Of a DNA stretch of 29,839 nt, positions 2,789 to 28,201 are shown piece by piece. The DNA lies in the IMG/VR virus record IMGVR_UViG_3300032328_001191, positions 1 through 29,839 of that record; one strand, 5' to 3'. The DNA comes from a virus. Taxonomy: Duplodnaviria > Caudoviricetes. The position numbers were made by a program, and so were the translations under genes. The notes under the pieces are model-generated. The model saw nothing but the letters and a program-made list of their open reading frames with translations. It was not told where the DNA came from and ran no database searches. Every line of letters starts with the position of its first letter. Positions within the stretch are counted from its first letter, which is position 1.

Positions 2789-2974
2789 ATGTTAATAGTT
2801 GAAATTAAAAATGGAGAGAACATTGAAAAATCTCTCAAGACATTGAAATCTAAAGTCATTAAGACTAAGCAAAATCAAATTCTATTTGATAGAAAGGAGT
2901 ATAAAAAAAAATCGGTTCGAAAAAGAACCGAGATTTTGAAAGCGAAATATATTCAAAGAAAAAAATTAAATTGA
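2789..2974 (+). CDS. rpsU: Phage-encoded 30S ribosomal protein bS21
   Basis: MLIVEIKNGENIEKSLKTLKSKV...RKEYKKKSVRKRTEILKAKYIQ matches the Bacteroidia bS21 pattern (GENI..AL, K.SV..R, KA.YIQ with Tyr54). Confidence 0.9.
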   Translation: MLIVEIKNGENIEKSLKTLKSKVIKTKQNQILFDRKEYKKKSVRKRTEILKAKYIQRKKLN

Positions 2975-19301: not shown

Positions 19302-19332
19302 TTTGGTTTTACAATATTTATCGTTATCTTTG
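19302..19332 (+). promoter_or_regulatory. Bacteroidota-type promoter of tmRNA with a nested TATTTAT motif
   Basis: TTTG(19302)-N19-TATCTTTG(19325); TATTTAT at 19315-19321. Confidence 0.7.
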
Positions 19333-19351
19333 TTTCAGTTCTTTAAAATAT

Positions 19352-19750
19352 GGGGGTGTTCAGGTATTGATTGCAATAATTAGGGTACGCAGGCACGTAG
19401 TCAGAATTCATCTATGACTTAAATCCACGGTGAAAAATTTCAAATGGCAATACTTTTGCTAAAATGGCTACTTTAGGTTTAACTAGAGAAGCTGTTGTTG
19501 TTGGTGCTTAATTAGTACAGAACAGCGTTCGGGTCGGTTAGGACATATAACCTAGGAACAGAAGTCCAATATACGGGTCACAGGTCAGAGCTCGTTTAAA
19601 ATAACTCTGAGACCAGGTAATTTGTAAGTTTGGTTCCCACACATATCAAACTTAATATTTCGGAACATTGAGAACCGATGTTGTACTAAACGTGTAGTCT
19701 GTTTATGTTGATATTGTAAGACAAGGGTTCGATTCCCTTCACCTCCACCA
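19352..19750 (+). ncRNA. ssrA: tmRNA (transfer-messenger RNA)
   Basis: Acceptor GGGGGTG/CACCTCC-ACCA with G3:U70; T arm AAGGG-TTCGATT-CCCTT; TAAACGTGTAG near the 3' end; internal tag frame 19446-19511 GNTFAKMATLGLTREAVVVGA*; length 399 nt. Confidence 0.93.
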
Positions 19751-22668: not shown

Positions 22669-22682
22669 ATAATTTATCTTTG
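22651..22682 (+). promoter_or_regulatory. Bacteroidota-type promoter
   Basis: TTTG(22651)-N20-TATCTTTG(22675), ending 6 nt before ATG 22689. Confidence 0.7.
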
Positions 22683-22688
22683 TATCCT

Positions 22689-23204
22689 ATGAAAATCATA
22701 TTTTTAGACATAGATGGTGTATTAGCAACAAATAAAGAATTTGCAACAAACAGAACTAAGTTCAGAGAAAAATATCTGTGGGCTAAGGAGTTGCGTGTTC
22801 CTTATGGATGGAACGAGGGATGTGTTAATGTCTTCAATGAAATATTGGATATAACAAATGCTGAAATTGTCATCAGTTCAGATTGGAGATTTCATTGGGA
22901 TTTAGATGAATTAGATAAAATCTTCAAAGCTAATAATGTTAAAAAATCACCAATATTTGGTACCATAAAGAACAAAAGAAAAATGAGTTCTGATTTAGAA
23001 GATGATAGAGTTTATCAAATCAACGAATGGGTTAAGTTTAACAACCCTGAAAAGTGGGTGGCTCTTGATGATATGAATTTGAGTAGTTTAGGACCAAATT
23101 TTTTTAGAACAAAGGATTCTGAAGGATTAAAACAAACAGGTTTGAAAGATAAAATCATAAAAGTATTAAACGATGGTCAAGATAACAACAAGGGAGATAG
23201 TTAA
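22689..23204 (+). CDS. HAD phosphatase of the Swiss-Army-knife RNA-repair type (HAD_SAK-like)
   Basis: KIIFLDIDGVL, IVISSDWR, WVALDD and EGL motifs. Confidence 0.82.
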   Translation: MKIIFLDIDGVLATNKEFATNRTKFREKYLWAKELRVPYGWNEGCVNVFNEILDITNAEIVISSDWRFHWDLDELDKIFKANNVKKSPIFGTIKNKRKMSSDLEDDRVYQINEWVKFNNPEKWVALDDMNLSSLGPNFFRTKDSEGLKQTGLKDKIIKVLNDGQDNNKGDS

Positions 23205-23364
23205 AAATAGATACTTAGGAGTTGCTCCTGAGGGATTTGTTTTACTCCATGAAAAGACGATTCAAGACTTAGAAAATTTTGATATTTGGAAAGAGTGGAA
23301 AAATAATATTATTAAATTAGATTTAAATAACAGAATTGAGATTGAGGAAAGTAAAAAGTCTTAA
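23173..23364 (+). CDS. Hypothetical protein (63 aa)
   Basis: Short ORF filling the gap in a plus-strand operon. Confidence 0.55.
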   Translation: MVKITTREIVKNRYLGVAPEGFVLLHEKTIQDLENFDIWKEWKNNIIKLDLNNRIEIEESKKS

Positions 23365-23374
23365 GTTTCAAAAC

Positions 23375-23453
23375 TGGTCAAACTGGCGGTAATCGTCTGC
23401 AGCGATGAAAGGAAGTGCACTCCGAGGTATAACATCCCGTCAGTCCCTGACCA
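23375..23453 (+). ncRNA. Unidentified structured RNA candidate upstream of pspC
   Basis: GC-rich island with nested stems TGGTCA/TGACCA and ACTGGCGG/CCGTCAGT enclosing two small hairpins; strand assumed from the operon. Confidence 0.5.
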
Positions 23454-23466
23454 CATTAAAATTATT

Positions 23467-23649
23467 ATGAAAAGATTATACAGAAAAAACGGTAACATGA
23501 TTGGTGGTGTTTGTGGTGGTATGGCAGATTTTACAGACATTGATAAGACAATCATTAGATTGTTATTCACTGTGTTAATTTTTACCCCATTCCCAATTAT
23601 CACAATTTACATAATTGCATGGATTATAACCCCATCAGAAAAAATATGA
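23467..23649 (+). CDS. pspC: PspC domain membrane protein
   Basis: MKRLYR...IGGVCGGMA.FTDID..IIRLLF...YIIAWIITP matches the PspC consensus. Confidence 0.88.
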   Translation: MKRLYRKNGNMIGGVCGGMADFTDIDKTIIRLLFTVLIFTPFPIITIYIIAWIITPSEKI

Positions 23650-24035
23650 GTAAAGTAACAAAAAACCCCACATTATTTGTGGATATAGATGGTACAATCA
23701 TAAAGTACCGTAAATTCGATGAATTAGCTACAGCCGTATTAACACCCATCCAAGATGTAATTGATTATGTAAATAACCATTATAATTCAGGTTCGGTGAT
23801 AATTATTACTACAGCACGTCCTTCGAGTTATGAATTAATGACAAAACAGGAACTTGAAAAATTGGGGGTAAAATACCATCAAATAGTTATGGATTGTGGA
23901 AGGGGTACAAGAGTTATTTTAAACGATATGGACCCTGAAAATCCAATCGAAAGGGCTGTTGGAATAAACTTTATTAGAGATGGTGGATTTGAATCAATAG
24001 GTGGAGTCCCCGACATTAAATCATATGAGTTATAA
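23646..24035 (+). CDS. Minimal HAD-superfamily phosphatase-like protein
   Basis: LFVDIDGTI, IIITTARP and LGVKYHQIVM; ATG 23646 overlaps the pspC stop (ATGA). Confidence 0.8.
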   Translation: MSKVTKNPTLFVDIDGTIIKYRKFDELATAVLTPIQDVIDYVNNHYNSGSVIIITTARPSSYELMTKQELEKLGVKYHQIVMDCGRGTRVILNDMDPENPIERAVGINFIRDGGFESIGGVPDIKSYEL

Positions 24036-24387
24036 AGTATCAGCAAAAAGGCACTTAGCCAAAACAGTTAGTTATAGAGTTGTCAGTACAGGAATTGGAT
24101 TTGCAATTATGTGGTGGGCAACAGGAGATATAAGATTTGGTGCTGCGTTTGGAATTGCAGAATTAGTTTACAAACCAATCCAATATTATATTCACGAAAG
24201 AGTATGGTATAGATTTATCAAGTTTGGATTGGTCGAAGATAAAAAACCCAAGGTCAAGAAAGTTCAACTAAACGAAGTTGAAACGAAAATTGTTAATGAA
24301 GTTCAATCCGAACCAATTGTCAAAGAACCTACTCAAGTTCCACCAACAACAGGAAAAAAAGTATTAAATTATAGTTCAAATAGATAA
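24025..24387 (+). CDS. DUF2061-like membrane protein
   Basis: RHLAKTVSYRVVST...YYIHERVW pattern. Confidence 0.8.
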   Translation: MSYKVSAKRHLAKTVSYRVVSTGIGFAIMWWATGDIRFGAAFGIAELVYKPIQYYIHERVWYRFIKFGLVEDKKPKVKKVQLNEVETKIVNEVQSEPIVKEPTQVPPTTGKKVLNYSSNR

Positions 24388-26834: not shown

Positions 26835-26909
26835 TGGTGTGACTAGAGAGAATCGAACTCTCACATGAAGCGCCACAAGCTTCCGCCCTACCATTAGGCT
26901 ATAGTCACC
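26835..26909 (-). tRNA. tRNA-His(GTG)
   Basis: Acceptor GTGACTA/TAGTCAC; anticodon arm GAAGC-TTGTGGC-GCTTC; TTCGATT loop; encoded G-1, A73 and CCA. Confidence 0.93.
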
Positions 26910-26915
26910 ATATTG

Positions 26916-26986
26916 TTATCCCCCAAGGATTCGAACCTTGAATAATTGGACCAAAACCAATTGTGTTACCGTTACACCAGAGGATA
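26916..26986 (-). tRNA. tRNA-Gln(TTG)
   Basis: TATCCTC/GGGGATA, ATTGG-TTTTGGT-CCAAT and CAAGG-TTCGAAT-CCTTG; no encoded CCA. Confidence 0.93.
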
Positions 26987-26991
26987 ATATG

Positions 26992-27065
26992 TGGACCAGA
27001 TAGGAATCGAACCTATTACCTTCACATTATGAGTGTGCCGCTCTAACCGAGTGAGCTACAAGTCC
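26992..27065 (-). tRNA. tRNA with CAT anticodon, probably Ile2 (lysidine type); elongator Met not excluded
   Basis: GGACTTG/CTGGTCC; loop CTCATAA; paired G1-C72 and no 3 G-C pairs in the anticodon stem, so not an initiator. Confidence 0.85.
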
Positions 27066-27068
27066 AAA

Positions 27069-27196
27069 AAAAGGAAAGGGGAAGATGGGTGCGTGGACAT
27101 CCCCTTTTATGATAGGCATTACTTCGACTCTAATTAGTCTCCTTGCTTACATTCCAACTTTTTAATGAAGGTGTAAGGCTTCCCTATCAACCTTTT
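27069..27196 (-). ncRNA. Unidentified multi-stem RNA between tRNA-Trp and tRNA-CAT
   Basis: Stems AAAAGG/CCTTTT, TGATAGG/CCTATCA, CTTACA/TGTAAG, GACT/AGTC and AAAGGGG/CCCCTTT fill the whole spacer. Confidence 0.55.
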
Positions 27197-27197
27197 G

Positions 27198-27270
27198 CAC
27201 GCATGTCAGGACTCGAACCTGAAACTCCTAGTTTTGGAGACTAGTACTCTACCAATTGAGCTACACACGC
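27198..27270 (-). tRNA. tRNA-Trp(CCA)
   Basis: GCGTGTG/CATGCGT, CTAGT-CTCCAAA-ACTAG and TCAGG-TTCGAGT-CCTGA. Confidence 0.93.
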
Positions 27271-27271
27271 A

Positions 27272-27391
27272 TTACTTTTTTATAATCCCAGCCTTAACAA
27301 GAAACTTATTAGCAGATTTCTTATTCTTACAGGCTTTCTTTGTGACCTTTCTAATTGCTTTAACCATTTGGTCTATTTCTTTTTTTCTCAT
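27272..27391 (-). CDS. Small basic peptide (39 aa) between tRNA-Cys and tRNA-Trp
   Basis: MRKKEIDQMVKAIRKVTKKACKNKKSANKFLVKAGIIKK* fills the spacer exactly; below the ORF-track cutoff. Confidence 0.55.
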   Translation of the reverse strand: MRKKEIDQMVKAIRKVTKKACKNKKSANKFLVKAGIIKK

Positions 27392-27392
27392 G

Positions 27393-27464
27393 AGGTCAGT
27401 ACAGGAATCGAACCTGTGTAGATAGTTTTGCAGACTATCACCTAAACCACTCGGCCAACTGACC
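27393..27464 (-). tRNA. tRNA-Cys(GCA)
   Basis: GGTCAGT/ACTGACC with U73, ATAGT-CTGCAAA-ACTAT and ACAGG-TTCGATT-CCTGT. Confidence 0.93.
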
Positions 27465-27470
27465 TTTTTT

Positions 27471-27704
27471 CTAACGAACCATGTCGAAGTTGATGTTATT
27501 GTTTGACATCAGTTCACGAAGTTCTTCCCTTATTTCTTGATAAGCGTCGTACTTATCTTGTGGTAAATCATCAGATGCATATTTGGTTTTAGCTCTCAAA
27601 GATTGGTCTAATTCCCATAACACTGACCAAAATTTCATACCACTATTTGCTAAATCAAAATCTTGTTGGTCATCAGGTAAATTAAATTCAAGTATTGCTT
27701 TCAT
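27471..27704 (-). CDS. Hypothetical phage protein (77 aa)
   Basis: MKAILEFNLPDDQQDF... ORF with an A-rich leader, filling the gap in the tRNA cluster. Confidence 0.75.
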   Translation of the reverse strand: MKAILEFNLPDDQQDFDLANSGMKFWSVLWELDQSLRAKTKYASDDLPQDKYDAYQEIREELRELMSNNNINFDMVR

Positions 27705-27751
27705 ATTATTATCTTTTTATTTTACGAAGATACAACCAATATTTTAAAGAA

Positions 27752-27791
27752 CAAAAAAAAAACCCCAAACTTCATTTCTGTCGTTCAGGGT
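27752..27791 (-). terminator. Intrinsic terminator (candidate attenuator)
   Basis: Minus-strand ACCCTGAAC-gacagaaatgaa-GTTTGGGGT followed by about 9 T. Confidence 0.8.
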
Positions 27792-27819
27792 CTGTATATG
27801 AATATACATCAGGATTATT

Positions 27820-27912
27820 TTAGAATCTTCCGTCTGAACTACAAAGCATATTTTCGTACCAACAAATTTCTTGCTGATGACTAAAAACTATATGTTGGAT
27901 TGTTGTGTTCAT
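27820..27912 (-). CDS. Candidate leader peptide (30 aa)
   Basis: MNTTIQHIVFSHQQEICWYENMLCSSDGRF*, 6 nt downstream of a TATTTAT motif (27919-27925) and 28 nt upstream of the terminator stem. Confidence 0.6.
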   Translation of the reverse strand: MNTTIQHIVFSHQQEICWYENMLCSSDGRF

Positions 27913-27952
27913 GTTATTATAAATATATGTTACTTCTTTAAAATATCAATTG

Positions 27953-28033
27953 TACCCCAAGTCGGACTCGAACCGACACGACTTACGTCACGACATCCTA
28001 AGTGTCGCGTGGCTGCCATTACACCATCGGGGT
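27953..28033 (-). tRNA. tRNA-Leu(TAG)
   Basis: ACCCCGA/TTGGGGT, CGACA-CTTAGGA-TGTCG, long variable arm GAC-GTAA-GTC and GTCGG-TTCGAGT-CCGAC. Confidence 0.93.
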
Positions 28034-28035
28034 AT

Positions 28036-28127
28036 GAAGATTGAAGACACTCTTTAGAGAAATCACGTCTCTTTTTCCCCAAGCGAGGAATTAGTTTCAC
28101 CCACAAGAGCGAATTATATCAATCTTT
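28036..28127 (-). ncRNA. tRNA-like RNA without a canonical anticodon loop, with extended outer stem
   Basis: Outer stem AAGATTGA/TCAATCTT; 7-bp CGCTCTT/AAGAGTG; hairpins TTCCTC-GCTT-GGGGAA and AGAGA-CGTGATT-TCTCT. Confidence 0.55.
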
Positions 28128-28129
28128 CG

Positions 28130-28201
28130 TAGTCCCGTCAAGAATCGAACTTGAATTTGGAGATTAGAAGTCACCCGTTCTATCCGTTGAACTACAGGAC
28201 C
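28130..28201 (-). tRNA. tRNA-Arg(TCT)
   Basis: GGTCCTG/CGGGACT, loop CTTCTAA (one T-T mismatch in the stem) and TCAAG-TTCGATT-CTTGA. Confidence 0.92.

Follow-up and report, generated by a model that had tools for sequence, protein, structure and literature searches.

A probable codon-matched, ribosome-mediated attenuator ahead of a tRNA gene cluster in a large T4-like phage

The stretch of DNA analysed here (the window) is the 29,839-nucleotide viral record IMGVR_UViG_3300032328_001191 (Duplodnaviria; Caudoviricetes), a fragment of a large T4-like phage. Its portal, large terminase and prohead protease genes all lie on the minus strand, opposite a bS21 gene, and this gene set fits the bS21-encoding phages of Bacteroidota, which according to the available text of PMC9723584 have Bacteroidetes hosts and carry 5-25 tRNAs per genome. 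Seven tRNA genes are present, all on the minus strand: those for Arg and Leu lie ahead of the element studied here, and those for Cys, Trp, CAT, Gln and His, the five that the first-pass annotation of this DNA had listed, lie behind it. The features of the locus are as follows.

2789-2974, plus strand: bS21 gene (PF01165); portal, terminase and prohead protease genes are on the other strand
27952..28201, minus strand: tRNA-Arg(TCT) and tRNA-Leu(TAG), upstream of the leader and not behind it
27919..27949, minus strand: upstream region of the leader with putative promoter function, having a host-type -7-like box (5/6) at 27927-27920 overlapped by TATTTAT at 27925-27919
27820..27912, minus strand: leader ORF of 30 codons plus TAA, with its ATG at 27912 and a sensing zone from codon 2 to about codon 20
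27834..27844, minus strand: antiterminator 5' strand (end of codon 23 to codon 27), from folding and covariation
27793..27808, minus strand: small AU hairpin, incidental
27753..27791, minus strand: predicted intrinsic terminator with a 9-bp stem, a 12-nt loop and 9 further U
27736..27752, minus strand: boxA-like motif GTTCTTTAAAATATTGG directly behind the U tract (motif match; putative NusB/uS10 binding site)
27725..27755, minus strand: host-type promoter-like site TTTG-N19-TATCTTCG behind the terminator, one mismatch from the consensus kept by most relatives
27471..27704, minus strand: 77-aa ORF within the tRNA cluster, which follows tRNA-Lys in relatives
26835..27464, minus strand: putatively gated tRNA cluster of Cys(GCA), Trp(CCA), CAT (likely Ile2), Gln(TTG) and His(GTG)

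No Pfam family matched the 77-aa ORF above cut-off. Between tRNA-Arg and tRNA-Leu, a bracket of about 95 nt (28034-28128, minus strand) is predicted to close into a multi-branch fold (z = −2.0, 5/200 shuffles); it has no Rfam match, in relatives another closed stem of comparable size occupies this place, and we regard it as a candidate small stable RNA. The 129-nt spacer from tRNA-Trp to the CAT tRNA (27068-27196, minus strand) is predicted to form two long hairpins (z = −0.99), and part of it is covered by RNA contigs from two runs. Elsewhere in the window, the region 19329-19750 (plus strand) has a tmRNA gene preceded by the same boxA-like motif as the one behind the U tract, and another copy occurs at 24328 (minus strand). 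Two HAD-family phosphatases of the RNA-repair type (HAD_SAK_2, weak HAD_PNKP; 22680-24035, plus strand) are encoded about 3 kb from the tRNA block and may belong to a tRNA repair function.

The TATTTAT motif, the 30-codon ORF and the peptide that the first-pass annotation had described were all recovered on the minus strand. The leader contains 3 Gln, 2 His, 2 Cys, 1 Trp and 3 Ile (one ATA) and no Lys, using 17 of the 20 amino acids, and its second Cys (codon 24) falls in the antiterminator, outside the sensing zone. The terminator arms (27791-27783 and 27770-27762) are followed by 9 T (27761-27753), and no shuffle out of 200 was as stable (z = −3.19); a standard terminator scan omitted this terminator because of its loop limit of 8 nt. 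The antiterminator that had been proposed is present but longer than described, with 27844-27834 pairing with the terminator 5' arm plus four loop bases in a duplex with one mismatch (z = −2.30, 8/200 shuffles as stable). The 6-bp TGTATAT/ATATACA hairpin is likewise there, but most relatives have replaced it. The whole 191-nt region folds no better than shuffles (z = −0.93), the duplex of terminator arm and leader has p = 0.13 against shuffles, and the chance of Cys, Trp, Gln and His all occurring in 29 codons is 0.012 under the usage of the window's proteome and 0.045 under the leader's base composition. No Pfam family matched the leader peptide and no Rfam family the leader/terminator element. 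On its own, then, the window offers modest evidence only. A broken tRNA, suggested by the resemblance of the antiterminator to a D arm, was dropped because neither ARAGORN nor Rfam detects one.

Fifteen of the 27 TATTTAT copies in the window lie no more than 30 nt ahead of an ATG-started ORF of at least 25 aa, the portal and prohead protease genes included, and TAWTTAT occurs within 45 nt ahead of the ATG in 67 of the 97 leaders described below. Judged by its position alone, TATTTAT is likely a phage promoter motif. At least 20 RNA runs matched the window, with a word share of 0.11 or less in each. One RNA contig (depth 3.1) covers 27797-27897 with 5 differences; among the matches listed, which are contigs from 4 RNA runs, none spans the terminator, so they are uninformative on termination and read-through.

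An element-blind search with the upstream DUF6878 protein returned 8 loci, and the leader ORF, antiterminator and terminator are kept in all 8 (about 4 distinct sequences). A wider class was collected by three pattern scans of viral contigs together with a detector for terminators no more than 450 nt before a tRNA. These gave 100 distinct elements, most of them retrieved with patterns that contain the stems and related to one another by descent; many other pattern matches arose by chance or were ordinary terminators lacking a U tract, a leader or a tRNA. Three of the 100 were left out: L252 is cut off, L316:112 has no usable ORF, and in L006, where a Leu-Arg-Leu cluster stands behind a terminator without a leader of its own, the ORF is the tail of a long one. 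In the remaining 97 elements an ORF of 22-40 codons ends 22-55 nt before the stem (29 nt in the window). Conservation of the short ORF and of the stop-to-stem spacing, which the first-pass annotation had proposed as checks, is therefore found in relatives. The window's family comprises 38 distinct members with an open frame; its pN/pS of 0.48 on 18 disjoint pairs (p = 0.004) suggests moderate amino-acid constraint on the sensing zone, and its leaders retain a Cys-Trp-Tyr-Glu core.

Up to three leaders occur per genome, as in L249 and L304, unlike one another in sequence and each ahead of a different tRNA block. Leaders rich in Pro, Thr, Asn, Gly and Asp precede a block of Pro, Asn, Asp, Gly and Thr tRNAs, Leu/Arg-rich leaders precede Leu, Arg and Leu, and the window's family precedes a block running from Glu to Ser. 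In relatives, tRNA-Arg(TCT) and tRNA-Leu(TAG), which lie upstream of the leader in the window, sit in another leader's cluster or behind their own Leu/Arg-rich leader. In one locus (L285:8041), the 27 tRNAs of one cluster stand for 18 non-Met amino acids, every one of which is found in a single 40-codon leader; that cluster has no Asp or Glu tRNAs, and an Asp tRNA lies behind a second leader.

A constitutive terminator that merely separates transcription units, with a chance ORF upstream, would account for the unremarkable statistics of the window alone and for the fact that the terminator is the equilibrium fold (see below). A short ATG-started ORF lies ahead of 83 of 88 terminators that precede tRNAs and ahead of 2 of 26 other terminators in the same loci, however, and both of those exceptions are themselves leader elements. 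Together with the conservation just described and the frame-specific codon match and covariation reported below, this contrast leaves such an account with almost no credence.

Beyond the viral contigs, a blastn search of 50,697 cultured-phage records gave two short chance matches and no element, and no leader-terminator arrangement was found before the tRNAs of Flavobacterium phage immuto_2-6A (4 annotated tRNAs) or in four stretches of a 484-kb uncultured phage. A GTDB scan with one narrow pattern gave 24 matches, among which the tRNA leaders are L380 and L382 only, both on contigs that are possibly phage. L382, a member of the window's family, comes from a 4.7-kb contig. The contig of L380 is 375 kb long, and 11 of 23 proteins tested have PHROG matches; no T4-type portal turned up in its genome, in a search whose control likewise found none. 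At L380 (G004:C16, 268400-271600, in a Bacteroidota bin), a His/Ser/Tyr/Leu-rich leader stands before His, Ser, Ser, Tyr and three Leu tRNAs and an endonuclease, and an ORF further down is presumably leucyl-tRNA-synthetase-like. Five other GTDB matches (L376, L392, L379, L384 and L385), from Chloroflexota/Anaerolineae, have leaders with runs of Arg or Cys codons and the same antiterminator/terminator stems before enzyme genes, which we take to be ArgG and PAPS reductase; these are apparently attenuators of the classical type for the arginine and cysteine pathways.

We scored the match between leader codons and downstream tRNAs in the 53 unique elements of the 97 whose clusters have at least 3 tRNAs and are not cut by a locus end, using 19 amino acids (Met excluded) and with ORF choice and cluster limits set independently. 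An amino acid is present in the leader in 418 of 424 cases when its tRNA lies downstream and in 331 of 583 when it does not. With one leader per family the log odds were 4.2, compared with permutation maxima (5000 draws) of 2.05 for 17 families at 70% identity and 2.44 for 9 families at 50%; single linkage at 40%, where the families merge into two and the permutation test becomes powerless, gave P = 0.38. Within loci, the matched pair of leader and cluster beat the swapped pair in 15 of 15 comparisons. The expectation that leader codons track the downstream tRNA set thus holds both between and within families.

The match is confined to one part of the leader and to one reading frame. In the sensing zone, amino acids with a downstream tRNA are present in 401/424 cases and those without in 159/583 (0.95 vs 0.27), and the distal zone shows no enrichment (137/424 vs 213/583); the five other frames give 0.48-0.64 vs 0.44-0.60. 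The cognate share is 0.69-0.88 at codons −20 to −4 before the antiterminator and 0.24-0.57 from −3 on, and this edge is where a stalled ribosome begins covering the antiterminator. The match also extends to isoacceptors, at 160/177 vs 160/353 over ten split codon boxes: leaders of clusters with Arg(TCT) as the only Arg tRNA have 24 AGR to 2 CGN codons and those with only Arg(ACG) have 2 to 15, the tables for Leu, Ser and Gly being less clean than that for Arg. Most leaders have one codon per tRNA and no tandem runs, the Leu/Arg leaders being the exception, and the tandem cognate codons of the window are Gln-Gln only; since each codon is mostly single, a stall would need a deep shortage. In family E leaders, codons 9-19 (L001:6060-6145) run Val, Phe, Lys, Cys, Trp, Tyr, which is the order of the tRNA genes downstream.

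Direct sensing of tRNAs by the leader RNA through codon-anticodon pairing without a ribosome, in the manner of a T-box, or action of the peptide in trans might also be considered, given that the leader has cognate codons and that its family shows a Cys-Trp-Tyr-Glu core with moderate amino-acid constraint. Rfam nevertheless found neither a T-box stem I or antiterminator nor a leader match, at gathering score or at E ≤ 5, and the codon match spans up to 19 amino acids in a single ATG-started frame and ends at the distance of a ribosome footprint. Leader peptides moreover differ wholly between families, and three-base frame shifts in the leader tail retain the RNA helix and not the peptide. We therefore consider both of these possibilities very improbable.

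Within the window's family, 20 complete clusters allow codons and tRNAs to be compared one by one, in rows that share descent and are thus not independent events. A Val codon is present in 11/11 leaders with tRNA-Val in the cluster and 3/9 without, a Phe codon in 13/13 with tRNA-Phe and 2/7 without, and a Lys codon in 12/12 with tRNA-Lys and 3/8 without. ATA occurs in the sensing zone of 10/10 family members with a CAT tRNA of the window's type and of 1/6 with neither this CAT type nor a TAT tRNA, so the CAT tRNA of the window likely is Ile2. The cluster of relatives consists of Glu, Val, Phe, Lys, Cys, Trp, Tyr, CAT, Gln, Arg, His, Ile and Ser tRNAs, with some missing in each. The window is without the Glu, Val, Phe, Lys, Tyr, Ile-GAU and Ser tRNAs, and the cluster of relative L001 has seven more tRNA types than that of the window, besides Arg(ACG) and a second CAT; the window has therefore lost part of its cluster. 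Among these tRNAs only Lys has lost its codon too, which bears out the first-pass annotation in singling out the absence of Lys from the leader: it is a codon loss alongside the lost tRNA-Lys. The leader still has Val, Phe, Glu, Tyr, Ser and ATY-Ile codons without matching tRNAs behind it, and the five remaining tRNAs read 8 of 19 sensing-zone codons. Hence the proposed match to Cys, Trp, CAT, Gln and His stands insofar as all five codon types are present, but it is partial because the leader codons exceed the remaining tRNAs. With tRNAs lost faster than codons, the leader would also answer delays at Val, Phe, Glu, Tyr, Ser and Ile codons that the cluster cannot relieve.

The sigma-A box of Flavobacterium is TAnnTTTG at −12 to −5 (available text of PMC9723704). 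A perfect box lies behind the terminator in 62 of the 97 elements, 54 of them with a −33 match of at least 3/4, and ahead of the leader in 40; in the window, the promoter-like site at 27755-27725 is present as first described, with 5/6 at its −7 box. The caveat that this site could bypass the terminator is thus a property of the class and not of the window alone. Because internal promoters are common in the class, read-through probably adds, in most cases, to a basal supply from the promoter-like site.

A boxA-like motif occurs no more than 110 nt behind the terminator in 70 of the 97 elements, compared with 0.024 expected. Sites of this kind are expected in the leader and spacer of rRNA operons. 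Four genomes were searched, two of which had a 16S gene: in the Polaribacter genome the motif stands 119 nt ahead of the 16S gene and again in the spacer that follows, and the Flavobacterium genome has it in the rRNA spacer. In E. coli, boxA binds NusB-uS10 and suppresses Rho termination (available text of PMC10931766). The motif is upstream of the perfect −7 box in 23 elements and downstream in 23, and in 24 a perfect box is absent. The window's copy precedes the 5/6 box, so only read-through RNA would carry it, which speaks for read-through transcripts being produced, and being protected across the untranslated tRNA block.

These observations bear on the possibility that the attenuator, though real, gates little or is decaying in the window, with most tRNA coming from the promoter behind the terminator and the leader serving as a general sensor of slow translation. 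The frequency of the internal site in the class, the small fraction of sensing-zone codons still read and the absence of seven tRNA types present in L001 all speak for it. Yet 35 of the 97 elements have no perfect −7 box behind the terminator, and 11 have neither a perfect box nor boxA, their first tRNA following 12-25 nt behind the stem. Those boxA-like motifs that lie upstream of the box, as in the window, would be carried by read-through transcripts only, and what is weakened in the window is the internal box, with the ORF and both helices intact. A general sensor, furthermore, would not be expected to follow tRNA content codon by codon. We therefore consider a minor gate of this kind unlikely, although less so than the other alternatives.

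Constrained folds of the nascent RNA were used to examine the proposed switch. In the window, the antiterminator had a probability of 0.99-1.00 with the ribosomal A site at codon 21 or earlier, of 0.26 with codon 22 and of 0 from codon 23 on, and a stall-dependent switch was found in 89 of the 97 elements; the predicted switch thus depends on the ribosome footprint, whose masking in folds the first-pass annotation had proposed as a check. Once the full 3' arm of the terminator is free, equilibrium favours the terminator (0.97-0.98) even if a ribosome is stalled. The last bases of this arm would still be inside the polymerase at the U tract. Hiding the last 1-2 nt gives 0.83-0.99 for the antiterminator with a stalled ribosome and 0.98-0.99 for the terminator with the ribosome at the stop codon (0.99 and 0.98, respectively, with the last 2 nt hidden). 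Since the terminator is the equilibrium winner regardless of the ribosome, the switch is predicted to be kinetic.

At the antiterminator/arm position left free by the search pattern, 82 elements have A-U in 43 cases, G-C in 35 and G-U in 4, and A-C in none (18.4 expected). In the family DNA alignment (25 of the 38 members), 96.7% of antiterminator cells are paired and 3 of 6 pairs show two-sided change, above all 500 shuffles. Of the two helices for which covariation had been proposed as a check, the antiterminator covaries, but the terminator stem, though paired in 225/225 cells, does not covary beyond shuffles. Three unrelated stems outside the search pattern (L285, L286 and L302) each have their own complement in the 3' end of the leader. 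The duplex of arm and leader beat shuffles at p ≤ 0.05 in 53 of the 82 elements that a pattern had selected, but in only 7 of the 15 that none had. As a candidate for a pause hairpin, which would synchronise polymerase and ribosome, the family retains a hairpin over the Gln-Gln/Cys-Trp codons; its covariation is not above shuffles, and it shows excess stability in 2 of 31 members.

Taken together, these sequence comparisons show the element to be real and conserved, and it is likely a codon-matched, ribosome-mediated attenuator of phage tRNA genes, partly eroded in the window. The trp/his-type reading of the first-pass annotation is supported by the ORF, the codon match, the antiterminator covariation in relatives and the footprint folds. 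A ribosome that stalls on a codon read by a downstream tRNA would leave the antiterminator free, and polymerase would then read into the tRNA block, whereas a ribosome at codon 23 or later, or at the stop codon, would cover the antiterminator and the terminator would be predicted to form. Read-through transcripts would load Nus factors at the boxA-like site, and the attenuator would raise tRNA levels above a base provided by the promoter behind the terminator. Because the genes under its control encode the very tRNAs whose lack it senses, the circuit would act as negative feedback on their supply, and it would be of most use where host tRNAs have been cleaved or degraded or are outnumbered.

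A stall would report the lack of a charged, intact tRNA for a codon, and the signal may be a cleaved, a scarce or an uncharged tRNA. Because more tRNA is no cure for amino-acid starvation, the useful trigger would be tRNA loss or shortage, caused for example by host anticodon nucleases or tRNA decay. A single codon per tRNA should set a high threshold, as would suit near-complete tRNA loss. We see a broader proposal as evenly balanced between true and false: large Bacteroidota phages might share out the genetic code among two or three tRNA operons, each gated by a leader, with translating ribosomes serving as codon-resolved monitors of the tRNA pool. A block would be read past its terminator, and passed to the host machinery for rRNA antitermination, whenever a host nuclease or shut-off takes away a tRNA which that block can replace, and leaders would co-evolve codon by codon with their blocks. 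If this is true, the leader sequence would be a record of the tRNAs that a phage is prepared to replace, and tRNA genes would be autoregulated directly by their own decoding activity.

Leader-peptide attenuators are well known from amino-acid operons, such as trpL, hisL, pheL and leuL and the multivalent thrL and ilvGMEDA leaders. They also occur in Flavobacterium (available text of PMC9723704). Like them, the phage element has a short conserved ORF with regulatory codons placed where a stall would count, an antiterminator overlapping its 3' end that excludes an intrinsic terminator with a U tract, and predicted stall-dependent read-through. Unlike them, it is phage-borne, gates tRNAs rather than genes for amino-acid biosynthesis or synthetases, so that the product would feed back directly on the sensor, and has a boxA-like site behind the terminator. 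Several paralogous leaders split the code, and tandem runs of one to three amino acids, as in amino-acid attenuators, are replaced by single codons, one for each tRNA, covering up to 19 amino acids. The pheM-pheST attenuator of E. coli and T-box riboswitches, the latter needing no ribosome, control aminoacyl-tRNA synthetase genes and sense the charging of one tRNA; the phage element is similar to both in that a translation component would be governed by the state of its cognate tRNA. The Anabaena trn operon is reportedly under the repressor TrcR. In strain PCC 7120 this inducible operon is a supernumerary tRNA array turned on when translation is impaired, and the available text of PMC8421152 does not mention attenuation, a leader or antitermination. 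The Anabaena response is global, in contrast to the codon-matched phage leaders.

Phage tRNAs are said, in further studies, to counter tRNA-cleaving defences, and replacement of depleted host tRNAs is the likely purpose of the present ones as well. The role of phage tRNAs is a long-standing question, to which codon compensation and the replacement of cleaved host tRNAs are the main answers in the available text of PMC10264068, which makes no mention of attenuation, leaders or promoters. Leaders and attenuation are likewise not mentioned in the main text of PMC9723584, as far as it is available, and no paper on leader-peptide attenuation of tRNA genes was found in the open-access literature, the range covered here. 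A codon-matched attenuator would indicate the condition that the phage evolved to detect, namely slow decoding of the codons that its tRNAs read, and the question of why phages carry tRNAs would become testable on an element of about 200 nt without growing the phage. The leaders might also serve as compact natural tRNA-depletion sensors in screens for tRNA-cleaving defence systems. Compared with known systems, the mechanism is already familiar, and what is new is the tRNA target, the design of one codon per tRNA and the closed loop. Attenuation would thereby reach beyond amino-acid and synthetase operons to tRNA genes that feed back on their own supply.
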